Shown here one piece after another: positions 1-38,755 of a stretch of 64,000 nucleotides of DNA. Source of the stretch: a virus (lineage: Duplodnaviria > Heunggongvirae > Uroviricota > Caudoviricetes); IMG/VR virus record IMGVR_UViG_2795385694_000001; one strand, written 5' to 3'. The notes beneath the pieces are model-generated. The model did no database searches. It was given only the letters and a program-made list of their open reading frames with translations, and was not told the DNA's origin. Position 1 is the first letter of the stretch. Every line of letters begins with the position of its first letter. The position numbers and the translations under genes are program-made.

Positions 1-210
1 ATGGGAACATACGAATACGGGGCCAAGCTAGAGCAGAAATGTATAGAGCCAGGACACTGGCTCATTGAGGGGTACGACGTGTGGCGCGAAGATGCTTGGG
101 CATATTCCGATACCGTCTGGCATATCGAGCAGTTCGGTAAGCGCGTAGCCACCTGTATATCCCTAGCGGATGCCAGGGATTCAATTCGGAACCGTATCTT
201 CAACACCTAA
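1..210 (+). CDS. hypothetical protein (5' partial at window edge)
   Basis: ORF runs from the window start; coding-like codon usage; no recognisable domain. Confidence 0.3.
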   Translation: MGTYEYGAKLEQKCIEPGHWLIEGYDVWREDAWAYSDTVWHIEQFGKRVATCISLADARDSIRNRIFNT

Positions 211-235
211 CCCATACCAACTAAGGATAGAAACA

Positions 236-448
236 ATGGATTACTTATACATTCGCGCATGGGATCGCATGATGGGGTCTTACCCGTCATGGACAAAAGG
301 CCAACTATCCAAAGCTCGCAGGGAGTCCGCACCAATGCTTGCCATCTACCACAGAGACGGCAAGTGGATGACGGTCAACGACATTGATGTGGTGGAAACG
401 CTTAAGCGCCTGGCATACCACGCCGCCCTACTAACCCATACCAACTAA
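236..448 (+). CDS. hypothetical protein
   Basis: ATG at 236 preceded by AAGGATAGAAACA RBS; in frame with the 170..448 ORF. Confidence 0.4.
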   Translation: MDYLYIRAWDRMMGSYPSWTKGQLSKARRESAPMLAIYHRDGKWMTVNDIDVVETLKRLAYHAALLTHTN

Positions 449-547
449 TAGAGAGGCACGTGAACTCATTGCGTGACTCACAGAAGCAATTCTGTGGGTT
501 GCGTTGTGTGCTCACGACACACAATCCACACACGGAAGGGATTAGTA

Positions 548-1081
548 ATGGAGTTCACCGAAGTCTCCAATGAAGATGGTGTTGTCACTATCGAAGTTAC
601 GGGGCGTGGTTTTGACGCCAGGGGCACGGTAACTATTGGTACTGGCACATGGCCGCTATACAACATTCCTGATTGTGTAGCGCCTACTGTCGATGTCCGA
701 TTCGTCGGCACTGTGACCATCAACGGCAAGGACTACGAGCCTTGGCGCTGTAGTTCAATGTTCCACCCATACGCCCATGGTCAGAATGAACGTGAGGTGC
801 TCACCGACAAGGGCGTACAGGTACTGCCATACATGGCTAGCGCTGGCGGTTATCACCGAGAGCTGACTGACAGTGCACGAACCAAGCTGCGTGAGCTTGC
901 AACGGCGGTGGCCGATAAGTACCTGACAACCGAAGCATCCAAGGCGGCACTCATTAACGCGGCCATTTACAAGATAGCGGACGCTCGCATCGAGAAAGAA
1001 AAGGCCGAGGCCGCAGTACGGGACCGCGTGGCCGAACTAGACAGCGCGCGTGCATATCTCGCACAAATGGAACAACTCTAA
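548..1081 (+). CDS. hypothetical protein
   Basis: ATG 548 lies 7 nt after the conserved CACACGGAAGGGAT start-associated motif; the longer ORF from 473 is unlikely. Confidence 0.6.
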   Translation: MEFTEVSNEDGVVTIEVTGRGFDARGTVTIGTGTWPLYNIPDCVAPTVDVRFVGTVTINGKDYEPWRCSSMFHPYAHGQNEREVLTDKGVQVLPYMASAGGYHRELTDSARTKLRELATAVADKYLTTEASKAALINAAIYKIADARIEKEKAEAAVRDRVAELDSARAYLAQMEQL

Positions 1082-1170
1082 GCGTATTGCTCGCTTCAGT
1101 CGGGCACGGTCCAACCGTGTCCGGTTGTGGCAATCAATCACGGGATTGCCTACACACGGAAGGGATACGC

Positions 1171-1755
1171 ATGTCAAAGAATCGGAAGTCTGACAGCCTC
1201 TCAGTTGACGAGATGGCCGATCGCCTCTATTCGATCTGGCAGAGCGCAGAACCGTGGCAGCACGATTCAGGTACCAAGTGGTATGACGCCGCCCGGCAGT
1301 GGGTTATTGAGGCTGCGGAACGTCACAATGTCAGTAATGAGGTGGTGGCCGGTGTTATCGCGGCCTACTCACCACAGACCCGATGGGTGGACAACCTGCG
1401 GGACGCTGAGTACCACCTAGCCGGGTCACCTCTTCGCTCTGGAGTGATGGGGGCGAACGTTCGTCGTGCCGCTGCTGTCATTGAGCAGGGACTAGATGGG
1501 CTAGGAAACGGACCCAAGGTTAAAGCGTTCGCGCGCAACATCCTTGGAGATACCGACGCTGTCACTGTGGATGTATGGGCAGCACGTGCAGCGTTCGGCA
1601 CAATGGACAAATCCGTTGCAGCACAAACGATTGCGTGGGTTGGTGCCTATGACAAGGTGGCCGACGCATACCGCAAGGCCGCTGCCAATGCTGGTGTTCC
1701 TGCCTCTGTTATGCAGGCAACCGTTTGGGTAGCCATTAGAGGCAAAGCCGAATAG
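1171..1755 (+). CDS. hypothetical protein
   Basis: ATG 1171 directly after ACACACGGAAGGGATACGC; followed by a hairpin terminator. Confidence 0.6.
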   Translation: MSKNRKSDSLSVDEMADRLYSIWQSAEPWQHDSGTKWYDAARQWVIEAAERHNVSNEVVAGVIAAYSPQTRWVDNLRDAEYHLAGSPLRSGVMGANVRRAAAVIEQGLDGLGNGPKVKAFARNILGDTDAVTVDVWAARAAFGTMDKSVAAQTIAWVGAYDKVADAYRKAAANAGVPASVMQATVWVAIRGKAE

Positions 1756-1772
1756 TTCTAGATAGGCAGAGT

Positions 1773-1797
1773 GGGTCGCGAGTCTTTCTCGCGGCCC
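1773..1797 (+). terminator. hairpin terminator without a U-tract (I-shaped, mycobacterial style)
   Basis: GGGTCGCGAG-TCTTT-CTCGCGGCCC forms a 10-bp stem with one G.U pair, immediately after the 1755 stop. Confidence 0.45.
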
Positions 1798-1885
1798 GCT
1801 TGGTGTATCTAGCACCAAAACATCCTATGACCTGCATCGATTGGGTGCGTGGTCGGATGGTTTCACCACACGGAAGGGATACAAA

Positions 1886-2308
1886 ATGTCTACACGTTCA
1901 ATCCTCATGATTGCGACCGATACCGGTGACGCTGGTGTCTACGTACACAGTGACGGCTACCCGGACGGGGACTATGGCCGTCTTGCGGTGTACAGCAAGA
2001 TCATCGAACGCGATGGGGTAGATAAGTTCCGGGCCACCATCCTGGCCGGTGCCGAATTCGGTGGCTGGTCATCGATTTTCGGCGAAGAGAACCCGGACAA
2101 CTACCTTGGCGCTGACCGGGCCGAGTCTGTACCTGGTTACGGCGTGCGCTATCTAGACGCTGAAAAGTGGTTAATCCGCCCGGGTGACGATCTCTACGAC
2201 GCAGGCGCGGAGTACATCTACCACATCGCCAAAGACGGCACTATCACATGGGCCGAGGTGAATACCAGCGCGTACGGCGCGCTCACTTGGAATCGATTCT
2301 CAGCCTGA
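1886..2308 (+). CDS. hypothetical protein
   Basis: ATG 1886 follows CACACGGAAGGGATACAAA; 140 aa. Confidence 0.6.
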   Translation: MSTRSILMIATDTGDAGVYVHSDGYPDGDYGRLAVYSKIIERDGVDKFRATILAGAEFGGWSSIFGEENPDNYLGADRAESVPGYGVRYLDAEKWLIRPGDDLYDAGAEYIYHIAKDGTITWAEVNTSAYGALTWNRFSA

Positions 2309-2386
2309 ATAGGCAGCATGCACAGCGTGAACCACGTTGTGCGTGTGGTGTATTCAGCACCAACACACACGGAAGGGATACAAACC

Positions 2387-3436
2387 ATGCCTACAGAATG
2401 CCACCGTATCGACAACGCTAACGGCGTCTACATGTACGCCGATTCGCGCAAAGATGCATGGCACCAGCTTGGACAGCAAGTCGGTCGCACTATGACAGCT
2501 GAGGAGGTTCTCAGCGCGTCGCACCTAGCTGGTTGGGACGTACGGAAGATGCCTATCAGCATTCCGCAAGACCCAATCATCACAATAGATGGAGTTACTA
2601 CTCCACCTGCGATCATCGTGCCTGACAGGTATGCAACGGTACGAACCAACCCGATTACCAAGGAGATTGACTACCTCGGGATTGTGGGTGATCGCTACGA
2701 GCCGGTGCAGAACGAAGCATCATGTGATCTGTTGAACGCCATCGTAGATGAATCGGGTGCTCATTTCGAGACAGCCGGTGCACTCTATGACGGTCGCCAA
2801 ACATTCGTGACCATGAAACTGCCGAAGGTGATGGACATCGCTGGTGTCGACGGCAGAATTGACCGCACCGAGTGGTATCTAGCAGCACTCAACAGCCATG
2901 ATGGATCAAGTGCATTGCGGGTGATCCTGACTGGCGTTCGTATCGTCTGCGCCAACACGCAGCGGTGGGCACTGAAGGGTGCTCAGTCGTCATTCTCGGT
3001 GCGTCACACCAAGAATGCTAAGGCGAATATCGCGGAGGCACGTCGACTGCTGGGCATTACTTGGCAGTCTATTGGCACGATCGACGCTGAGTTCCGGCGC
3101 ATGGCTGAGGCTGAGATGTCGAACATCGAAGCTGAGGAGTTCGTTCGCAAGCTGCTCAAGGCTGACGATGTCGAGCCGGGTACCGCTGCGGCTACCCGCC
3201 GCGACAATGTGGCGAACGATATTTTCGACTTGTTCGTCTCGTCGGAAACCATTGCGCCGGTGCGTGGTACACGTTATGCGTTGTACAACGCATTTACTGA
3301 GTATCAGGACCACTACGCAGCTGTTCGCGGAGCTGGTGGCCGGGATGCGGATGCGCGCGCACTGCGCACCATTCGCGACGCCGAGAGTGAAACCTCACTC
3401 AAGGCGCGTGCGTTCCGTGGCCTACAGCTGGTCTAA
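2387..3436 (+). CDS. hypothetical protein, possibly DUF932/phage-plasmid-like family
   Basis: ATG 2387 after ACACACGGAAGGGATACAAACC; 349 aa; weak recollection of DUF932-type proteins only. Confidence 0.55.
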   Translation: MPTECHRIDNANGVYMYADSRKDAWHQLGQQVGRTMTAEEVLSASHLAGWDVRKMPISIPQDPIITIDGVTTPPAIIVPDRYATVRTNPITKEIDYLGIVGDRYEPVQNEASCDLLNAIVDESGAHFETAGALYDGRQTFVTMKLPKVMDIAGVDGRIDRTEWYLAALNSHDGSSALRVILTGVRIVCANTQRWALKGAQSSFSVRHTKNAKANIAEARRLLGITWQSIGTIDAEFRRMAEAEMSNIEAEEFVRKLLKADDVEPGTAAATRRDNVANDIFDLFVSSETIAPVRGTRYALYNAFTEYQDHYAAVRGAGGRDADARALRTIRDAESETSLKARAFRGLQLV

Positions 3437-3547
3437 CGGAAATGCATATTGATGCGGGATGGGTGGTCGCGTGGCTTATCTGCGCGGCCATCTACCTAGT
3501 CCAGTACGGGAGAGCTAAATAGGGAGGGTGGGACGCGAAGGGGTGCA

Positions 3548-3573
3548 AGCCTTTTCGCGGCCCGCCCGCTGTA
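3548..3573 (+). terminator. hairpin (terminator-like)
   Basis: CGCGAAGGGG-TGCAAG-CCTTTTCGCG forms a 10-bp stem including two G.U pairs, downstream of the 3436 stop. Confidence 0.35.
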
Positions 3574-3601
3574 TTTAGCAGCACACACGGAAGGGATACC
3601 A

Positions 3602-3844
3602 ATGACAACTATCGCGGCACGCCCGTTAAATGTGATCGCGGACGAGATTAAAAGGGATTGGATTAAACCGTTTTACGGCGCTGTCCCCTACTTGGATGCC
3701 ATGGCTGCGCTCGGTGATATCGATGAGCGTTACGGGTGTGACTCTGCCGAGTCCATCGTTCTAGGCTTCCTGGCCAACTCTGGCAGCTGGCGCGGTCAGG
3801 TGGCTCGCCGGATCAAGAAGGAACTGACAGACATCCTGGGCTGA
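3602..3844 (+). CDS. hypothetical protein
   Basis: ATG 3602 after ACACACGGAAGGGATACC. Confidence 0.55.
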   Translation: MTTIAARPLNVIADEIKRDWIKPFYGAVPYLDAMAALGDIDERYGCDSAESIVLGFLANSGSWRGQVARRIKKELTDILG

Positions 3845-3901
3845 ACAGGGAGCTGTCGTAGGTCTGCTGTATTCAGGCGGCAATACACGGAAGGGGTACG
3901 A

Positions 3902-4108
3902 ATGCATACATCCAGCATTCTGGGGACCAAGGGTGAGGGCGTCATGTGGCAGGGCCCTGGCCGACTGAAGTATGACGAGGCCTATAAGGAAGCCTCTGAC
4001 CACGCTCTTTACTGGTTTGGCCGGAAGAGCGGTGAGGTGTCTGTGGACGAAACTAAGATCATCCACAACGGGGTTCACGTTGCAAACATCCTGGTAGAGA
4101 GGATCTAG
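3902..4108 (+). CDS. hypothetical protein
   Basis: ATG 3902 after ATACACGGAAGGGGTACGA. Confidence 0.5.
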   Translation: MHTSSILGTKGEGVMWQGPGRLKYDEAYKEASDHALYWFGRKSGEVSVDETKIIHNGVHVANILVERI

Positions 4109-4111
4109 ACC

Positions 4112-4474
4112 ATGGTAAATCGCACTGAAGAGCGGGTGACATTCCTTGGGGACATCTTGGACGAGGGCATGGCAGCGGCTCGGTACTGGGCACACGAGCA
4201 GTCGTGGCACGTGCGAGATGACGGTACTAATGTCGTTGAATTCCTACCCGAGGGTGAGTCACCCGCAGCCACTGTTGACATTGACGTGGTTGCGCGAGGG
4301 CTGCGCCTTATCTGCGACGGCAAGGTTGAGTACTTCAACGCCGGATATGACGGTGCCACTCGCAGTCGCATCGCGGCGTACAACCGAACTAACGGGGATG
4401 AGGCTGACGCGGACGCAATCGACTACGACTGCATCATTCAAGCAGGTTTGTTCGGTGAGATTGTCTATAGCTAA
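4112..4474 (+). CDS. hypothetical protein
   Basis: ATG 4 nt after the upstream stop; GAGAGGA RBS. Confidence 0.5.
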   Translation: MVNRTEERVTFLGDILDEGMAAARYWAHEQSWHVRDDGTNVVEFLPEGESPAATVDIDVVARGLRLICDGKVEYFNAGYDGATRSRIAAYNRTNGDEADADAIDYDCIIQAGLFGEIVYS

Positions 4475-4512
4475 TGAGCCTGAGTAGGCAGTTTAATACG
4501 GTTGGGGAGTCA

Positions 4513-4731
4513 ATGATCATCCCCGCTATCCTCATCGCAGGTAGCGTAATACTCACTCCCCCAACAGCTCCCGACTGTGCACGATACGATGTGTGCAAGT
4601 ATCAGCCGGGATATAACGGGCCCCTCATGCCCACCTGGAACACTCCAGGAACGTATGGGGGCTGGACAACCAATCAAGTCTTGTGCGACCCGGTCACGTA
4701 CCAGTGTCGGCAAGTAGTACCAGGGAGTTGA
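4513..4731 (+). CDS. small secreted or membrane protein (N-terminal hydrophobic segment, 4 Cys)
   Basis: ATG 4513 with GGGGAG RBS; MIIPAILIAGSVILTPP signal-like N-terminus. Confidence 0.4.
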   Translation: MIIPAILIAGSVILTPPTAPDCARYDVCKYQPGYNGPLMPTWNTPGTYGGWTTNQVLCDPVTYQCRQVVPGS

Positions 4732-4733
4732 CC

Positions 4734-4823
4734 ATGACTCGGTATTGCATCACCTGTGAGCGTGAACGGGAAATGAGAGTCGAGAACGGCGAACAGTACT
4801 GCTCGGTAGGGCACCGGCAATGA
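4734..4823 (+). CDS. 29-aa CxxC...C zinc-ribbon-like peptide
   Basis: ATG 4734; its TGA overlaps the ATG of the next gene (ATGA); below the ORF-track size cutoff. Confidence 0.25.
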   Translation: MTRYCITCEREREMRVENGEQYCSVGHRQ

Positions 4824-5011
4824 CTGACATCAATGCAGTAATAGAACGGCTAGAGAGGGCCGACAAAGAGTTACAGGGGCTAGTTGCAATACAGGAAGAC
4901 CGGGTTCGTCACGGTCGGGGTGGTGCGCTAGAGGAACGAACTCGACTCGCCGGAAAAGTCGAAGGCGTACGTCTAGCTCTCTCATACCTAAGGGAAGAGG
5001 CAGAGGGATGA
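4820..5011 (+). CDS. hypothetical protein
   Basis: ATGA overlap with the upstream peptide; coiled-coil-like. Confidence 0.45.
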   Translation: MTDINAVIERLERADKELQGLVAIQEDRVRHGRGGALEERTRLAGKVEGVRLALSYLREEAEG

Positions 5012-5199
5012 AGGAATGGCGCGTTGTCCCGCGCACAGACAGACTGGGCAACCAACTCTGGTCACTGCAATACGACGTTATCTACCCATTGCCGGAACCG
5101 AAACGATACAACTTATGGCGAGAGGACCGCGTATTCCGAAATGCAGGGCGTGCACTCGCTGATCTAGCCTACCTACAGCAACACAAGGAGGGTCATTGA
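5008..5199 (+). CDS. hypothetical protein
   Basis: ATGA overlap with the upstream gene. Confidence 0.45.
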   Translation: MKEWRVVPRTDRLGNQLWSLQYDVIYPLPEPKRYNLWREDRVFRNAGRALADLAYLQQHKEGH

Positions 5200-5411
5200 C
5201 ACAGCAATACCGCGTTTCACTGAAGATGGATGACGGATTCACGAATGAAGCTGAGGGGGAGGATCTTCCGCAGCTCGTCACCACCACCAACGCACTCGCG
5301 GCGGGACATGGCGGCGAAGACGTTCACGACTACTTAGACGAGAACGGATCAATCATCTATACACGCAAGGGTAAGACAATCGGACGGGCTGACGTAACGC
5401 CAGTCATCTAA
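5196..5411 (+). CDS. hypothetical protein (TTG start)
   Basis: TTG start 5 nt after an AAGGAGGG RBS; overlaps the upstream stop. Confidence 0.4.
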   Translation: MTQQYRVSLKMDDGFTNEAEGEDLPQLVTTTNALAAGHGGEDVHDYLDENGSIIYTRKGKTIGRADVTPVI

Positions 5412-5479
5412 CACATCTGAATACGGAGGAGCCGCAGCGGGAGTCATTCTCGTTGCGGCTCTGCTGTTTTCAGCACACA

Positions 5480-5511
5480 GGGCATGGGACTCACGAACCC
5501 ATGCCCTTTTT
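5480..5511 (+). terminator. rho-independent terminator
   Basis: GGGCATGGG-ACTCACGAA-CCCATGCCC is a perfect 9-bp stem followed by TTTTT. Confidence 0.6.
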
Positions 5512-5534
5512 CTATGCCCAGAGGAAGGGAACGC

Positions 5535-6002
5535 ATGTTATTGGAAGGTTGGACATCAACGCCGGTTGAATACGAACGCCTCACTCGCGCTGAGGTAGTC
5601 GAGCACGAGCGCTACTGGGCCGAGATGGTTCTCAAGGCGCGAAGCCTACGGCGCAAGTATGACCGTGCGGTATGGCTGAAGGACATAAAACGGGCTGAGA
5701 GCCTCGCAGAGGCCCTGAAATCCCTTGGCCCATCCATGTTGTATGCCCACGGACGTTGGGAGCGTCACGGGCGCTGGAACCGGTACTACCAAGTACGTGG
5801 TGGTGCTGTACACACCACGCTGACATGCCGGTGCATCAACGGGGAGACGGTACTGAACCCGCTCCCCCAATTCGCCGGTAGGTCAAGGAAGTTCATCGCA
5901 GATCGATACAAGCTGTGCCGACACTGCGGGGACACCCACACGGGCGACATTCCTGCTGATCGAGCCTATCGATCGTTCAAAGCCTACCTGCTCATTACCT
6001 AA
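5535..6002 (+). CDS. hypothetical Cys-rich protein (CRC...CRHCGDTH)
   Basis: ATG 5535 after GAGGAAGGGAACGC; the upstream ATG at 5484 lies inside the terminator hairpin. Confidence 0.5.
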   Translation: MLLEGWTSTPVEYERLTRAEVVEHERYWAEMVLKARSLRRKYDRAVWLKDIKRAESLAEALKSLGPSMLYAHGRWERHGRWNRYYQVRGGAVHTTLTCRCINGETVLNPLPQFAGRSRKFIADRYKLCRHCGDTHTGDIPADRAYRSFKAYLLIT

Positions 6003-6071
6003 AGCGCGGTCTGACCTGCATTAAGTGGGTCGGGTTTACGTTCTGAATACACGAAGGAAGGGATACCCAAA

Positions 6072-6152
6072 ATGTTCGAAGAGGAAGAGATAGATTACGG
6101 CCCCGAGTGGTGGGGTGACTACCTCCAGGAGTCAGGGAGGTTGGCCCAGTGA
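6072..6152 (+). CDS. 26-aa acidic peptide
   Basis: ATG after ACACGAAGGAAGGGATACCCAAA; its stop overlaps the GTG of the next gene (GTGA). Confidence 0.25.
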   Translation: MFEEEEIDYGPEWWGDYLQESGRLAQ

Positions 6153-6343
6153 AGTGCTCAATCAGCTACTGCTGGGAGGACTCCGTGTCCAAAGAGATGT
6201 GCGCACACCACTACCAGCAGAACTACAAGCGGGACACGCGAGGCGATCGACGCAACCGGTCACGGCTCGCTAAGCGCTTGGAGGCTAAGGGTTTCAAGGT
6301 CTCTCAGGAGTACCTGGAGCAGCGATTGGCTGGCCTACGGTGA
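6149..6343 (+). CDS. hypothetical Cys/His-containing protein
   Basis: GTG start overlapping the upstream stop. Confidence 0.45.
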   Translation: MKCSISYCWEDSVSKEMCAHHYQQNYKRDTRGDRRNRSRLAKRLEAKGFKVSQEYLEQRLAGLR

Positions 6344-6615
6344 GCGCGCCAGTCACTCGGGATATGCGCTACTGGTACGAGCTTGGTAGACACACGCTAC
6401 TTCCCGGGACAGAGGTGTCCATTAAGGGCAAGACTGGCCGGTTCCGGTTCCAGTACTGGCGACACACCAGCTCTGGCATGGATGAACTCACGTTCGTCGG
6501 TGGGCCGCTACATGGACAGGGTGAGCGTTACGTCTCGGTCTACCCCGAGCGCGTTACACGGGTACATCGAATCAACAAGACATTGACCAACATTCAGAAG
6601 GAGAAGCGCAAGTGA
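6340..6615 (+). CDS. hypothetical protein
   Basis: GTGA overlap with the upstream gene. Confidence 0.45.
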   Translation: MSAPVTRDMRYWYELGRHTLLPGTEVSIKGKTGRFRFQYWRHTSSGMDELTFVGGPLHGQGERYVSVYPERVTRVHRINKTLTNIQKEKRK

Positions 6616-6785
6616 GCGCCACGGTGCTGGAGGCGCGATGGCTCACGAAAGGCCACTACCTGCCCGAATATGAGGAAGCGGTGACCGAGGTGGTTCAACT
6701 GGAGGACTTTGTCCTCGTGACATTCGCCAACGACCAGCCAGTGAAGGTCTTCCACGAAACTGACAAGGTCGAGGTGTGGGAATGA
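6612..6785 (+). CDS. hypothetical protein (57 aa, GTG start)
   Basis: GTGA overlap upstream and ATGA overlap downstream; GC3-rich; below the track cutoff. Confidence 0.35.
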   Translation: MSATVLEARWLTKGHYLPEYEEAVTEVVQLEDFVLVTFANDQPVKVFHETDKVEVWE

Positions 6786-6976
6786 GGTACTGCCCCACTC
6801 CCGACAAGAAGTCATATGTCAACAAAGGTGTAGCACTCCGAGCGGTTACCAGGATCCGCAAGAACAGTAGGACAAGGCACAACAAGAAGCGCTACATACC
6901 GGTGGAGCCGTACATCTGCACATGCGGCGAATACCACCTCTGCACTGCCGACAAAGCGAAGTTCAAACGCAAGTAG
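6782..6976 (+). CDS. hypothetical zinc-ribbon protein (YCP...CTCGEYHLC)
   Basis: ATG 6782 overlapping the upstream stop; last gene of a translationally coupled operon. Confidence 0.45.
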   Translation: MRYCPTPDKKSYVNKGVALRAVTRIRKNSRTRHNKKRYIPVEPYICTCGEYHLCTADKAKFKRK

Positions 6977-6982
6977 AGAAGA

Positions 6983-7015
6983 GGGTCAGCCCACATGGGT
7001 TGGCCCTTTTCTTTT
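6983..7015 (+). terminator. rho-independent terminator
   Basis: GGGTCAGCCC-ACAT-GGGTTGGCCC is a 10-bp stem followed by TTTTCTTTT. Confidence 0.6.
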
Positions 7016-7080
7016 ACCCAGATCGTTAGCAGACCTAACCAAATACCCACCCAATCATTCAGTCTCCTGCGGTATCATCT
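6984..7080 (+). other. candidate attP region (not resolved)
   Basis: Intergenic stretch immediately 5' of the serine integrase, where serine-integrase attP sites commonly sit; no core was identified. Confidence 0.2.
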
Positions 7081-8481
7081 GTGACTATGCGAGCTGCCGT
7101 CTACCTGCGCCAATCAATGGATAGAGAAGGTGATGGTCTAGCCGTCGAACGTCAGCGCGAAGACTGCCTGAGGATCTGCCGTGAGCGCGGCTGGGAACCC
7201 ACTCAGTACGTCGACAACGACACTAGCGCCAGCAAGGGCCGTCGACCGTCGTATGAGCGCATGCTCGCTGATATACGCAGTGGACGCATCGACGCCGTAG
7301 TGGTGTGGGATCTTGACCGCCTGCATCGCCAGCCCAAAGAGCTCGAGCAGTTCATTGAGTTGGCCGACGAGAAGCGGCTAGCCCTAGCCACTGTAGGCGG
7401 GGATGCCGATCTCTCCACCGATAACGGTCGGCTGTTCGCGCGCATCAAAGGCGCGGTGGCCAGGGCTGAGGTGGAGCGGAAGTCGGCAAGGCAGAAGCGC
7501 GCATTTCTCCAGATGGCCCAATCTGGTAAAGGCTGGGGCCCCCGCGCATTCGGATACAACGGTGACCATGACAAGCCGAAGATTGTCCTCAAGGAAGCTG
7601 AGGCCCTGAGGCGTGGCTACAAGATGCTCCTGTCGGGCGAAACCCTCTATTCAGTTGCAAAACACTGGAATGACGCTGGTCTGAAGACTCCCCGAGGGAA
7701 CCTGTTCAACGGAACCACGGTGCGCCGGATTCTTCAGAACCCACGCTACGCAGCTGTCCGCACCTACCACGATGAAGTCGTGGGCGAGGGTAAGTGGCCT
7801 GCGATCATTGACGAGACCACCTGGCAGGCTGTGAATGCCCTCCTTAGCGACCCATCACGCCATCAGCCGCGCCAGGTTCGTAAGTACGTCCTCGGCGGCC
7901 TACTCACCTGCAGCGAGTGTGGCCACAAGATGTCTGTGGGCGTACAGCACCGGAAAGAGGGGAATGTCCCCATCTACCGGTGCAAGCACGTCAGCTGCGG
8001 CAAGGTCACCCGACGTGTTGAGCGTATGGATGAATGGGTGAGGGAGATTGTCCTGCGCAGAATGTCGAGTCGGCATTGGGTTCCCGGCAATCAGGACAAC
8101 CGGGAAAGAGCCCTCCAGCTGCGTGAGGAGCTAGACACAATCAAGCAGCGAATGAGATCCCTCGCAATTGATTTCGCTGACGGAGAACTCACCGCAAGCC
8201 AGATGCGTATCGCTAATGAGCGCATGCGGGCGAAGCTTGATGACGTTGAGGACAAGCTGCGTCGAACCAATGTGCGCCCGATCCCCGATGGGATTCTCAC
8301 CGCGAATGACCGTGGCAAGTTTTACGACGACGAGATGTCTCTGGATGCGAAACGAGCCCTCATCGAGGCCTTATGCAACTCGATTGTCGTGCATCCCCTC
8401 AACCTCAAGGGCCGCAGTGCTTCCCAGGCTCCGCTCGGGCATAACATCGACGTCCACTGGCACAAGCCCAGTAATGGCTGA
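7081..8481 (+). CDS. int: large serine recombinase (serine integrase)
   Basis: N-terminal resolvase domain MRAAVYLRQS...VVVWDLDRLHR; zinc-ribbon CSECGHKM...CKHVSCGK; C-terminal coiled coil; 466 aa; the start may instead be ATG 7087. Confidence 0.9.
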   Translation: MTMRAAVYLRQSMDREGDGLAVERQREDCLRICRERGWEPTQYVDNDTSASKGRRPSYERMLADIRSGRIDAVVVWDLDRLHRQPKELEQFIELADEKRLALATVGGDADLSTDNGRLFARIKGAVARAEVERKSARQKRAFLQMAQSGKGWGPRAFGYNGDHDKPKIVLKEAEALRRGYKMLLSGETLYSVAKHWNDAGLKTPRGNLFNGTTVRRILQNPRYAAVRTYHDEVVGEGKWPAIIDETTWQAVNALLSDPSRHQPRQVRKYVLGGLLTCSECGHKMSVGVQHRKEGNVPIYRCKHVSCGKVTRRVERMDEWVREIVLRRMSSRHWVPGNQDNRERALQLREELDTIKQRMRSLAIDFADGELTASQMRIANERMRAKLDDVEDKLRRTNVRPIPDGILTANDRGKFYDDEMSLDAKRALIEALCNSIVVHPLNLKGRSASQAPLGHNIDVHWHKPSNG

Positions 8482-8568
8482 GATCCGCGACAGCTGCGAC
8501 TGAGTGAGTGGCGGCGCATCGCCCAGGATCCTGGCAAAGATCGCCTCGTCTTCGTCTGACCATTTCAT
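8371..8568 (-). CDS. hypothetical protein
   Basis: ATGA-coupled to the upstream gene; its 3' end overlaps the int 3' end by ~110 bp, so the true extent is uncertain. Confidence 0.3.
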   Translation of the reverse strand: MKWSDEDEAIFARILGDAPPLTQSQLSRISAITGLVPVDVDVMPERSLGSTAALEVEGMHDNRVA

Positions 8569-8822
8569 CGGGGTAGTGCCCCATCCACTCGCTTCATGAC
8601 TTCAGCGACGAGCGCCCATGACCCATCCGAATATCGGTGGTGCAGTGTGCCTGACGCGCTGGCCTTCGGGATCTTCGTACCGTCAAGTAGTGTTGCCTCG
8701 CGCTGCTCCGCTTCCCATCGGTAGACGTATGCACTACCACGGTCAGGGCTGAACATCTCCTGGCGAGTGATAAACACTTCACCAATCACTTTGTTGTTAA
8801 CCATAATTGGAATGATCAGCAT
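8565..8822 (-). CDS. hypothetical protein
   Basis: ORF track; coding-like composition. Confidence 0.45.
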   Translation of the reverse strand: MLIIPIMVNNKVIGEVFITRQEMFSPDRGSAYVYRWEAEQREATLLDGTKIPKASASGTLHHRYSDGSWALVAEVMKRVDGALPR

Positions 8823-10113: not shown

Positions 10114-11153
10114 TCGATCACCTCAGTGAATGGCCCGAATCGCTCTTCGAGCAGACCCATGGAGCGCAAGGTGTACCACTCCTCGTCCCCAACCTTCGAC
10201 TTCCATGAACCTGAGACGAACTTGTACCGACGCCCTATTCGGCCATCTACAGGACTCCACACCGTTCCGTCTCTAGCCTCTTCACAATCCAGGCTCGGAA
10301 GTACACGGGGCTCAAGGATTTCGGTGTAGGGGGCATATGTGGGAGACGGGTTGCCGACAGCCCAAATGTCAGGACATTCGCGCCAGCGCCAGCCGTTCTG
10401 GTACTTCCATTCATCCCCGTCACGGTCCCGCCACCGCGATCCCTGCTCGTCTACCCCTAGACGGTCAACGACACGGGGTTTACGTCCGGTGGCGTCTTTG
10501 AATTTGACCCTCTGTTGATGGTCTGCCACGAAGTCGATTGCCGGTTCCTGTTGTGCCGTAACGTCAAAGTCAACCGAACTTTGACTTTCGTTGGACTTTC
10601 CCGGTTCCTGTTGTGCTGTTGGGTCGATTCGCTTGACCGGCCTGAACTGCTCAATGAACCGCTCGACAGGATCGTTGGCGCTGGACCATTCCCCGATCTC
10701 GTTCACCGAGGAACAGGTGTACAGGATTCGGTTTACGGTCTCTTCCCAATAGTCACGCTCCCGGAGCGCGCTATCTTCCGCCTTATCGAGGCGATCGATC
10801 TCCGCGTGTAGTTCATCGAGCGTCTTCCCTGTCGGGTCGTAGATGACAGGCCAAGAGTCTGCGTCGTCCGCATCGGTAGGTTCTTCTGCGAACAACTCCG
10901 AGTCGTACAGTGGCTTGTAGCTCCAATGGGGCGAGCCCCAGAATTTGTCTCGGTCGCCTTGGACCCGGATGGCTACAGCCTCCCCGTCTGGTCGTCGTGC
11001 GATGGTGCCAACAGGCGCACCCTCGGGGACGCTGTTAGCGGCAGCGATCATTGCGTCTACCTCGTAGAGGCCGATCACTTCATCGACATTGAACGATAGG
11101 TAGTCAGCCATCGCTTTCCTCTGCGCTTCAGACGGATTCAACACGTTCACCAA
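10110..11153 (-). CDS. hypothetical protein with internal TAQQEP repeat and a C-terminal SLDCxEARDGTVW domain
   Basis: ORF track; the C-terminal ~60 aa are paralogous to the C-terminus of the 37110..37577 product. Confidence 0.55.
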   Translation of the reverse strand: MVNVLNPSEAQRKAMADYLSFNVDEVIGLYEVDAMIAAANSVPEGAPVGTIARRPDGEAVAIRVQGDRDKFWGSPHWSYKPLYDSELFAEEPTDADDADSWPVIYDPTGKTLDELHAEIDRLDKAEDSALRERDYWEETVNRILYTCSSVNEIGEWSSANDPVERFIEQFRPVKRIDPTAQQEPGKSNESQSSVDFDVTAQQEPAIDFVADHQQRVKFKDATGRKPRVVDRLGVDEQGSRWRDRDGDEWKYQNGWRWRECPDIWAVGNPSPTYAPYTEILEPRVLPSLDCEEARDGTVWSPVDGRIGRRYKFVSGSWKSKVGDEEWYTLRSMGLLEERFGPFTEVIE

Positions 11154-16473: not shown

Positions 16474-16545
16474 TATTGACGACGGGACTTGAACCCGCAC
16501 ATCCAGTTTCCAATAACTGGTGACCTACCGTTGGTCTACGCCATT
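16474..16545 (-). tRNA. tRNA with a non-standard 8-nt (or 6-nt) anticodon loop; identity unresolved
   Basis: D-arm GACC-AACGGTA-GGTC, T-arm GCGGG-TTCAAGT-CCCGT; anticodon region CCAGT-TATTGGAA-ACTGG. Confidence 0.45.
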
Positions 16546-17876: not shown

Positions 17877-18156
17877 ATGATGGACGACACGGCCCAGGTA
17901 CGGCACCTCAGGTCGGATCCTTTTTATCGGAACCTACTGCGGGATTACCCTGCCATCCATATGGCCACCGGCATCCCGATGGTCGCGCGGAGATGTCTCT
18001 CCACATTCCCCGTACGACCGACGCTTTCCTGGAGCTACCTGTACTTGCGCATGTGGTCTGACAGCCGGGGCCACACTGACTAACGAGGATGTTCTCCCTT
18101 TGCACTACCGGCAGCCTACGCCGCCAGTCGGGGCTCGAACCCGAATCTTCCTCTCG

Positions 18157-18510
18157 TGGAGCTGCCCGGAATTGAACCGGGATGTTACGTGACTTGTCAC
18201 AGTCTTCTACGTGCGTAGTCCACCGATTGGGTCGGTTGGGGTGGACGCCTGTCCGAATCGAGACCTCAGACTCTCGACCGATCTTCCAGCACAGTTTGTC
18301 GCCTGAGAGCTGGTCATTGCGAGTTCCCCGTATTCGCGACGGTGGATTGGTACACGGAACGGGTAAACCGTGGTACCCCACCGGACTACGCAGCTAGGGC
18401 GTAGTCGGACTGAGCAGAAGCTGCAGTTATTGTGGTTGCACTGTTACGGGCGTTGCGGGCCCGGCACGCTTCTCAGTAAGTTGACACGCAATCGAATACC
18501 TGTCAGCCCC
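18157..18510 (-). ncRNA. ssrA: tmRNA (ssrA), one-piece, mycobacterial type
   Basis: 5' GGGGCTGACAGG...GAAGCGTGCCGG...GCAACCACAATAACT then tag reading frame GCA GCT TCT GCT CAG TCC GAC TAC GCC CTA GCT GCG TAG (AASAQSDYALAA), 3' CCCGGTTCAATTCCGGGCAGCTCCA; this parallels the M. tuberculosis ssrA layout (tag ADSHQRDYALAA, as recalled). Confidence 0.85.
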
Positions 18511-27552: not shown

Positions 27553-27571
27553 TTGGTTTGTATCCCTTCAA

Positions 27572-36623: not shown

Positions 36624-37109
36624 GTTCGTGTGGGTATGAGCGCCGAGGGACACGACCCCCTCGGCGGCGCGACTGCGCACTCAGGTCGACAGGAAGGGAT
36701 ACTACTTTGCTCGGCCTCCCTGAGTCTCGAAACCCATTCTACTGATCCTGGCTTAGATGGAATCCCACAACGGAAATAATGAACCATTTCCGCAGGTCAG
36801 GGTGTTTCACCCACATGAACCCATGCGCCATGTCGTAGCCTCCTAAAAGGAGAGTGCGAACGCAGTGAGCACGCACCTCCCGCTAGGGAGGCCCACGCCG
36901 GATTGGCGTGGCTGCCCGGAGGGCATCAACCTCCAGACCGCAGCGTCCCCACTTGAGCATGGTTCTCGGTGAAATGAATAACCCTTGCACTCAAGGTATC
37001 TCACGTTGAGATGGAGGTAGTCGTTACGTAAGTCGGGAACGGTACTAGAGCGCGTGCGCGCGAGCCCGCTACCCACATGAACCCGAAATGCGCTGCAAGA
37101 CTTTGACGC

Positions 37110-38242: not shown

Positions 38243-38395
38243 CTGGATCGCCTTACCGCTGCGCTCGAAATCGACATCGCGGCCTCGAGCCTCCCCGATC
38301 ACGTCGACCACGACCAACTGAACGACTTTCTCATCGGCCTGCACTACAGCTACTGGAAATGCACCGGTCAACTCTAAACACGAAGGGATAAGCAT

Positions 38396-38755
38396 ATGAG
38401 CAACAAGCGCAAGGACAGCATCGGAGTTCTCTCCAAGACCCAGGGAATGGTCAAGCTCGCGAAGCCGGGACCACCTGTTGCGGTTGGCACTCGCGTCACT
38501 GGGCACAACCTGGGCGCAGTGACGCACATTATCTCGATCGAAGCTGAGCGCGTAGGTGAGAAGCGTGCCATCGGTATCACTTTCAATGAGGATGGCAGCC
38601 TTCACGCTGTGACCGTCCACTCCGCCGAAGGTCCGCTCGCGGAATTCAAGCCAGGCACCCTCCTGAGCATTGGCGATAGTGGAGACCTTGTCGTCTTCGA
38701 TGAGGAGTACTTCTTCGACCCCGTCAGCGGTGCCAGGGTGGTTGAGGTTCGCTGA
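38396..38755 (+). CDS. hypothetical protein
   Basis: ATG after ACACGAAGGGATAAGCAT start-associated motif. Confidence 0.55.
   Translation: MSNKRKDSIGVLSKTQGMVKLAKPGPPVAVGTRVTGHNLGAVTHIISIEAERVGEKRAIGITFNEDGSLHAVTVHSAEGPLAEFKPGTLLSIGDSGDLVVFDEEYFFDPVSGARVVEVR

Follow-up and report, generated by a model that had tools for sequence, protein, structure and literature searches.

A start-proximal motif and a stop-codon hairpin as a candidate RNA-level module between the small genes of MabI prophages

Why would one short sequence recur, nearly unchanged, in front of gene after gene in a single arm of a prophage? The question is raised by the IMG/VR virus record IMGVR_UViG_2795385694_000001, of which a stretch of 64,000 nucleotides (nt), called the window here, was analysed as a whole. 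A sequence-only reading of this DNA had pointed to a near-invariant motif, containing the Shine-Dalgarno (SD) sequence and placed just before the starts of small genes, and to a partner motif shortly upstream of it. Is the motif really tied to start codons? Is the partner a site of its own? Do the two act in RNA or on DNA, or do they have no regulatory role at all? The reading that we prefer, with a probability of roughly 0.55, is that motif and partner together make up one RNA-level intercistronic module, inherited within the cluster M/MabI lineage. The anatomy of the unit, its covariation, its strand bias, its association with starts, its conservation in the lineage and its place at cassette junctions are directly established.

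A motif in front of the small genes

The motif, ACACGGAAGGGATAC, is far more frequent than expected and sits at starts. Allowing up to three mismatches, it has eight matches in the window against 1.32 expected, and none of 100 shuffles reached eight. Seven of the matches are on the + strand, all within 530-6066, and four of these are exact; the eighth, at 18352 with three mismatches, lies on the strand opposite the transfer-messenger RNA (tmRNA) gene. Each of the seven + strand copies is followed by an ATG 2-6 nt past the end of the motif. Only 4.3% of + strand positions have an ATG (opening at least 25 codons) 2-7 nt downstream, which puts the chance of seven out of seven at ~3e-10. The claim that a near-invariant, SD-containing motif stands just before starts is thus borne out, as is the restriction of the motif to genes of one transcription direction. 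Among the junctions upstream of the integrase, all eight intergenic gaps of at least 57 nt contain the motif or a variant of it; the 12 tight or overlapping junctions contain none.

Reading along the + strand, the first copy is ACACGGAAGGGATTA at 530-544, with two mismatches, which precedes the ATG at 548 of a 177-aa open reading frame (ORF, 548-1081). Four exact copies follow: at 1154-1168 (ATG 1171, 194 aa, DUF7178), at 1868-1882 (ATG 1886, 140 aa), at 2367-2381 (ATG 2387, 349 aa, DUF932) and at 3585-3599 (ATG 3602, 80 aa). Next come ACACGGAAGGGGTAC at 3885-3899, with one mismatch (ATG 3902, 68 aa), and the variant GAGGAAGGGAAC at 5521-5532 (ATG 5535, 155 aa), which was absent from the list of the sequence-only reading. 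The last of the arm, CGAAGGAAGGGATAC at 6052-6066, has three mismatches and CTGAATACA directly on its 5' side, and its ATG at 6072 opens a 26-aa ORF that is overlapped by the next gene.

Which phage is this, and what do these genes encode? By sequence similarity, the window belongs to a MabI prophage of Mycobacterium abscessus, of the cluster M type. Its first 8 kb are 93.5% identical to prophiT49-2, and prophi86-1 and prophiGD54-2 are close as well; all three are M. abscessus prophages of ~80 kb (Vilmaviridae, Mclasvirinae). Genomes of the cluster M type have ~80 kb, a serine integrase far from attP, a large tRNA array and a tmRNA; in agreement with this, the window contains 21 tRNAs and a tmRNA, and its serine integrase lies at 7081-8481. 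Passages of two papers on MabI prophages place them with the cluster M mycobacteriophages (PMC8092301; PMC9934374). In prophiT49-2 the counterpart of the motif-bearing arm (530-6066), which lies upstream of the integrase, is the stretch of genes 147-166; in Pfam and PHROGs the motif-preceded genes match only DUF7178, DUF932 and families of unknown function. An ArdA-like anti-restriction gene is present in the corresponding arm of one relative. MabI prophages reside in clinical M. abscessus strains, and the arm in question is made of small genes of unknown function.

Does the motif reach beyond the arm? At 38378-38392 (+), directly after a TAA stop, there is a degenerate copy with a 1-nt deletion, ACACGAAGGGATAAG, followed by the ATG at 38396 of a 119-aa gene. 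A site had been reported at this point and it is real, if only as a deletion variant, but the claim that ties the gene at 38396 to the same set is weakened because the copy is degenerate and has no hairpin of the kind described below. An orphan copy, AGGAAGGGATAC at 36691-36702 (+), does have a hairpin on its 5' side and is followed only by a 12-codon ORF starting with TTG; its status is uncertain. It lies in a divergent region of 457 nt, with the central leftward island on one side and the rightward early genes on the other, and this region is 98.7% identical in prophiT49-2. A partial copy, TTGAAGGGATAC at 27560-27571 (-), follows a small hairpin and ends 7 nt before an ATG, at the junction of a resolvase-like and a WhiB-like gene in the rightward early operon. 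In prophiT49-2, ACACGAAGGAAGGGATTGAG (- strand, ~10447-10470) precedes gene 27, the first of the left-arm leftward block, so that the motif also heads this block, outside the window.

Beyond these genomes, the exact 15-mer occurs in several copies only in IMG/VR prophage contigs, nearly all of them 78-80 kb long and one of 28 kb; in genome contigs there are, among the matches listed, only single chance occurrences in unrelated taxa. The start codon behind the motif is ATG in 59 of 61 distinct MabI units and in 26 of 29 units of the cluster M phages Bongo and Rey.

The partner motif and a stop-codon hairpin

If the motif belongs to starts, what does the partner belong to? Taken alone, TGTATTCAG is weakly non-random, with eight matches against 3.6 expected and 5 of 100 shuffles reaching eight. 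Folding of each unit, however, indicates that the partner is not a separate site: it pairs with CTGAATAGG ~40-50 nt upstream and is thereby the 3' strand of the basal helix of a long hairpin. In the 5' basal strand, CTGAATAGG, TGA and TAG stand in two frames, and the stop codon of the preceding ORF either falls within this strand or comes immediately before it; every gene or pair of genes in the arm has its stop codons embedded in this way. The view of the partner as an independent upstream site has to be given up accordingly, and only part of its list of positions survives: the copies at 1804, 2349, 3570 and 5465 are genuine, the one at 3867 is the remnant of a deletion, and the one at 6040 has the opposite orientation and is therefore of the 5'-arm type, CTGAATAC.

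Is the hairpin selected, and if so as RNA or as DNA? A directed search of the window, its MabI relatives, Bongo and Rey gave 29 distinct hairpins on the transcribed strand, all built on one common template; they come from 10 of the 12 sequence sets searched (seven sets are separate genomes, the rest related prophage contigs). The template begins with 7 bp, followed by a 1x1 mismatch (G.G in 24 of 29), continues with 2 bp (an invariant G.U, then C-G or G-C) and a second 1x1 mismatch (A.G in 26 of 29), and ends in ~14 bp of unrelated sequence with a short loop, the whole hairpin measuring 53-64 nt. In an alignment of 14 sequences, pairing holds in 98.7% of cells and compensatory changes occur at 15 of 22 pairs, although the hairpins were picked by a folding criterion and many of them are orthologues, so that the percentage paired is partly circular and the counts are not independent events. 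None of 500 shuffles reaches any of the measures, and slid partners are only 32-49% paired. In the base, perfect covariation links the three positions of the stop codon to the 3' strand (TGA/TCA, TAG/CTA, TAA/TTA). The compensatory changes and the recovery of unseen copies by a model are the stronger evidence.

That model, a covariance model for which 14 hairpins were the seeds, matches the window at five places, four of them hairpins and one a remnant; each lies on the + strand within the arm, and there is no match in the other 57 kb of the 64-kb window or in the left 45 kb of prophiT49-2. At E<=1e-6 it recovers ~10 matches in Bongo (one of them a seed) and ~13 in Rey (four seeds), and every site has its best match on the transcribed strand, within the leftward right arm; the antisense strand scores much lower (for example, 23.0 against 68.8 bits). 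The same bias is seen in folding energies: sense folds better than antisense in 83 of 93 distinct units (mean -7.2 kcal/mol; Wilcoxon p 9e-13). Better folding on the transcribed strand points to RNA structure, and stems that vary in sequence and covary point to RNA structure rather than to a DNA-binding site; on this modelling, the hairpin is selected as RNA. A search of Rfam with positions 1-8600 gave no match, even at E<=1.

The window has four hairpins of this kind. At 1758-1812 (+), CTAGATAGGCAG ... TGGTGTATCTAG close a predicted hairpin of 23 bp and -38.8 kcal/mol (68.8 bits in the covariance model). The hairpin at 2305-2357 (+), CTGAATAGGCAG ... TGGTGTATTCAG, takes in the TGA of the upstream ORF at 2306-2308 (65.5 bits). 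The one at 3515-3578 (+), CTAAATAGGGAG ... GCTGTATTTAG, has -42.9 kcal/mol and 55.2 bits and holds in its base the TAG of a micro-ORF, 3442-3522. The one at 5417-5473 (+), CTGAATACGGAGGAG ... CTCTGCTGTTTTCAG, is of the cluster M type (54.1 bits). The remnant lies at 3841-3876 (+, 23.9 bits) and has lost ~17 nt of 5' stem and loop in comparison with prophiGD54-2. Other copies of the motif have different structures upstream: a 58-nt hairpin of 24 bp at 459-516 (+) before the copy at 530, two shorter hairpins at 1101-1150 (+) before the copy at 1154 and, between the hairpin at 5417-5473 and the variant at 5521, a terminator-like hairpin at 5479-5507 (+) followed by TTTTT.

Two side observations belong to these hairpins. 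The micro-ORF at 3442-3522 (+) is unannotated, has 26 codons and encodes a hydrophobic product, MHIDAGWVVAWLICAAIYLVQYGRAK; similar micro-ORFs, in which the amino acids differ but the hydrophobic core is retained, occupy the same place in prophiGD54-2 and in one IMG/VR prophage. A second, smaller repeated hairpin, TGACCTGCATCGATTGGGT at 1828-1846 and TGACCTGCATTAAGTGGGT at 6012-6030 (both +), lies between the stop-codon hairpin and the motif, and related copies are found in prophiGD54-2, prophi86-1, Bongo and Rey.

Could the motif act on DNA all the same, as a stoperator-type operator for a MabI/cluster M repressor or within a phage-specific promoter? Transcription would, in the second case, start in the ACAC, each hairpin terminating the preceding unit. 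Like the cluster A stoperators, the motif has no symmetry, recurs in many copies and runs without exception in the direction of transcription, yet it contains an SD and keeps a fixed relation of 2-8 nt to the ATG. Its orphan copy at 36691 stands in a divergent control region and another copy heads the left-arm leftward operon of prophiT49-2, both fitting places for an operator; a scan for sigma-70-type promoters, however, found none in any gap of the arm, and in several units the distance from the hairpin to the CA-rich leader of the motif is only 2-9 nt, which leaves no room for one. The TATTCA of the partner was considered as a -10 element and rejected: the final T is lacking, and Bongo has TTCTCA or TGCTCA in its place with pairing kept. 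As for termination, the actinophage phiC31 reportedly has terminators that lack a U tract, as the long hairpins do here. What follows the four long hairpins is CAGCACC or ACACAC, not the U tract of an intrinsic terminator; a T run comes only after the hairpin at 5479-5507, and the single terminator predicted on the + strand, 5428-5462, coincides with the inner part of the hairpin at 5417-5473. The G.U pairs and the sense-strand folding bias again favour RNA. PMC8092301 leaves the repressor of the MabI prophages unnamed, which counts for the operator version, but on balance a DNA site seems unlikely to us.

The base of the hairpin may have a second way of pairing. On the 3' strand, the four bases opposite the two mismatches, GGTG or GCTG, can pair with CACC or CAGC in the 4-6 nt just beyond the long hairpin, which leaves TATTCAG as the loop. 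In the window such a small hairpin, GGTG-TATTCAG-CACC, lies at 2347-2361 (+), formed by the 3' basal strand and 4 nt downstream of it, and has equivalents at 1802-1816, 3568-3582 and 5462-5475. At least four contiguous Watson-Crick pairs are available in 23 of 27 distinct tails, against 15.6 +/- 1.9 with swapped downstream parts, and this pairing explains the GCAC that ended the partner motif as first described. On this evidence the base of the unit may exist in two states, the upper stem staying folded. An account in which the partner was solely the small stem-loop (GGTG...CACC) was revised, the small stem-loop being predicted to alternate with the basal helix of the long hairpin. What would this do to the ribosome site? 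When the 5' arm is blocked in silico, the mean unpaired probability of the SD falls from 0.64 to 0.42, with a drop in most of 20 units; sequestration of the SD by the freed 3' arm is only suggestive, as the effect varies between units and comes without a proper null.

Taken to its end, this would turn hairpin and motif into an RNA switch with two states that a specific factor recognises. In state one the basal helix would enclose the upstream stop; in state two the small hairpin would form from the 3' strand. A terminating ribosome, or a cut at the G.G, G.U or A.G, would flip the unit and so set the translation of the next cassette, and the long hairpin, by putting the stop codon beside the next ribosome site, might even allow a ribosome to be transferred across it. 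If this were true, the arm, with its cassette junctions at the motif, would amount to a self-contained set of plug-and-play cassettes that supplies the punctuation for its own expression. As a whole such a switch strikes us as decidedly improbable.

Ribosome loading, cassettes and the case for a module

How would the RNA-level module that we favour work? Long RNAs would be transcribed from the arm, and the hairpins would punctuate them, as RNase III-type processing sites, 3'-end stabilisers, partial terminators or insulation. A terminating ribosome, or cleavage, would open the basal helix, whose 3' strand would then refold with the next 4-6 nt into the small hairpin. The motif would be an exposed, strong site at which new ribosomes load after each hairpin, and the recurring 15-20 nt are at the same time the crossover points for the insertion and deletion of cassettes.

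The motif does look like a ribosome site. Its GGAAGGGA pairs with the last 8 nt of the 3' end of mycobacterial 16S rRNA, which we take to be 3'-UCUUUCCU-5', in 8 bp with two G.U at -9.8 kcal/mol; the median for the 85 rightward genes of prophiT49-2 is -7.5 kcal/mol. An ATG follows 5-9 nt downstream of GGAAGGGA. The bases on its 5' side are almost exclusively A or C, forming a CA-rich leader poor in G and U, with no G at positions -8 to -6 before AAGGG.

Several points nevertheless weigh against the module as we have drawn it, besides the partial circularity of the pairing figures. The strength of the 16S duplex is not exceptional, and the predicted unpaired probability of the SD is moderate, 0.33-0.67 in the units of the window. 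A strong ribosome site alone fails to explain the conservation of ACAC and TAC. Nor can the difference between the MabI consensus, GGAAGGGATAC, and that of Bongo and Rey, GGAGAAGGGAA, derive from the rRNA, the 16S rRNA being presumably identical in both hosts; it could reflect a lineage-specific trans-acting factor or concerted evolution. The motif copies at 3885, 6052 and 38378 have no hairpin and some hairpins have no motif nearby, so the two parts are separable. Finally, polycistronic transcription, cleavage and termination are steps that we infer, as are the refolding and its effect on translation.

Would a dedicated trans-acting factor explain more? Phage T4 offers precedents: RegA represses at the ribosome sites of early genes, and the RegB nuclease cuts GGAG in early SDs. 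Here the motif would be the mRNA site of such a protein or RNA, which would jointly switch the translation or the stability of the gene set, and a dedicated regulon of the motif-bearing genes is possible. The conserved bases in excess of what 16S pairing needs, on both sides of the SD, and a consensus that changes between lineages with the same expected rRNA are what such a factor would leave behind, but recombination among copies can homogenise a motif unaided. The conserved G.G, G.U and A.G of the hairpin base resemble a protein-recognition feature, and these phages encode many translation-related functions (~21 tRNAs, a tmRNA, a release-factor-like protein, a peptidyl-tRNA hydrolase and RtcB); no candidate factor was identified. 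A segment of the tmRNA itself, nt ~146-160, CCCGUUCCGUGU (18352-18366 in the tmRNA gene at 18156-18510, -), is complementary to the motif at -17.9 kcal/mol, and the Bongo tmRNA pairs with the Bongo-type motif at -20.3 kcal/mol, with none of 300 shuffles as low. The complementarity is a post hoc finding, though, and probably incidental, because Estes, another cluster M phage, has no tmRNA yet keeps the repeats. A trans-acting factor is thus a doubtful alternative, though by no means a far-fetched one.

What happens to the units when genomes are compared? Comparison of the window with prophiT49-2, prophi86-1 and the IMG/VR prophages shows one and the same upstream unit standing before different genes, with the switch of sequence falling inside the motif. 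Behind the 1154 unit comes the 194-aa gene in the window and a 346-aa gene in UViG_2693429628; behind the 1868 unit, the 140-aa gene in the window and the 346-aa gene in prophi86-1; and behind the 530 unit, the 177-aa gene in the window and the 194-aa gene in prophiT49-2. The few bases between motif and ATG stay with each gene across these swaps. One unit joined to different genes at the motif argues that recombination between copies adds or removes modules of gene plus hairpin, and the same 15-20 nt recurring before many genes supply the crossover points for such gain and loss. A lone 5' hairpin base, CTGAGTAGGCAG, stands at 4483-4494 (+) with the rest of the unit missing; prophiGD54-2 carries, at the corresponding place, a complete hairpin, the motif and a gene of 77 aa, which indicates a deletion in the window.

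Might the repeats then have no regulatory role, being short homologies for cassette movement or merely copied along? The junctions do fall exactly in the motif and, as parts of one paper describe (PMC7953290), genes inserted in the cluster M phages Estes and Aziz arrive with copies of the conserved repeat CR3; in the Estes sequence, gene 172 has CACACGGAGAAGGGAA before its ATG. Crossover points of this sort, however, account neither for the fixed distance from motif to ATG and the functional-looking SD, nor for a motif conserved between MabI and cluster M despite unrelated flanks, and stems that change sequence yet keep pairing argue for selection on structure. Recombination as the sole role is therefore very unlikely; the module that we favour includes it as a second use. 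The covarying hairpin of fixed geometry, the stop codon in its base and the motif as a crossover point offer testable constructs, and the units could serve as portable expression junctions for mycobacterial genetics.

Two observations lie apart from the units. An exact 18-nt direct repeat, CTAACCCATACCAACTAA, occurs at 207-224 and 431-448 (+), one copy at the end of each of the window's first two ORFs; it differs from the main motif, and the same end of prophiT49-2 has CTAATCCCCTACTACA twice and a degenerate third copy. For a tRNA-like gene at 16474-16545 (-), ARAGORN gives a two-base anticodon (tg), and the prophiT49-2 record has tRNA-?(Gln|Pro).

The unit among known systems

Outside the mycobacteriophages there is a likeness to the early mRNA of T7, which has RNase III processing signals between its cistrons (Dunn and Studier). 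Like these signals, the MabI units are hairpins of ~50-60 nt, about two helical turns long, with small internal loops and partly conserved sequence; they lie between consecutive early genes and are followed by the ribosome site of the next gene. With 23 bp and two 1x1 mismatches between cistrons, they have the features of an RNase III-type duplex (at least ~20 bp, internal loops, intercistronic position). They differ in that their internal loops are 1x1 purine-purine mismatches, not larger loops, and in that the host is a mycobacterium. Cleavage by RNase III may be proposed by this analogy.

Two other systems were compared with the units. The stoperators of cluster A are asymmetric, multi-copy, intergenic and in a single orientation relative to transcription, as the motif is; they are repressor sites on DNA, with no SD and no fixed relation to a start codon, whereas the motif keeps to 2-6 nt from the ATG. 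The attC sites of integrons were considered and rejected: such sites have a tyrosine recombinase, IntI, beside them and end boxes RYYYAAC/GTTRRRY, whereas the units adjoin a serine integrase and have end boxes CTGAATA/TATTCAG, and the cassette junctions are in the start-proximal motif, not in the hairpin.

The sequence-only reading had drawn a parallel with the start-associated sequences (SAS) of cluster K mycobacteriophages and their extended form (ESAS), and the position of the motif does resemble SAS. The cluster K SAS has a 13-bp consensus, GGGATAGGAGCCC, in 11-19 copies (PMC3203893). Both elements are short, asymmetric, multi-copy and SD-containing, both have GGGATA, both stand 2-8 nt before the starts of non-structural genes after gaps of more than 50 bp, and both have an upstream inverted repeat with about half of the copies. 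The consensus itself is absent: GGGATAGGAGCCC with up to two mismatches has one match in the whole window, against 1.58 expected by chance. Further, the ESAS are a pair of conserved 17-bp inverted repeats in which the departures give no support to pairing in RNA, and the authors who described them decided against RNA hairpins (PMC3203893), whereas the MabI stems are free in sequence and covary, and the phages belong to different clusters. The function of SAS and ESAS is described as awaiting test (PMC12699233).

The nearest relatives are the repeats of cluster M. Parts of one paper (PMC7953290, citing Pope et al. 2014) report that cluster M phages have conserved repeats, CR1-CR4, with stem-loops upstream of CR3 and CR4; we found no functional test of CR1-CR4 in the literature. 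Bongo, Rey and Estes carry a unit homologous to that of MabI, ACACGGAGAAGGGAA with a hairpin: their leftward right-arm genes have CACACGG(A/AG)AAGGGAA 4-10 nt before the ATG, behind hairpins of the same template. The lineage is the same; the repeats stand between leftward small genes by the serine integrase and have stem-loops upstream; and inserted genes bring a copy of the repeat, as MabI cassettes have their junctions at the motif. The MabI form, ACACGGAAGGGATAC, differs in the missing GA of GGAGAAGGG, a gap of 2 nt, and in TAC replacing the A-rich 3' bases. One of the published insertions, Estes gene 172, has its CACACGGAGAAGGGAA 6 nt before the ATG, with no stop-codon hairpin of the template, and since this insertion bears CACACGGAGAAGGGAA, CR3 is by sequence very probably a motif of the same type. 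The repeats are not mentioned in the passages that a term search found in the two papers on MabI prophages (PMC8092301, PMC9934374). The motif thus belongs to a repeat system known from cluster M phages, of which it is the MabI form; the present analysis adds the anatomy of the hairpin, the stop codon in its base, the covariation and the strand bias, together with the alternative small hairpin, the pairing with the 3' end of 16S rRNA and the role of the motif copies as junctions.

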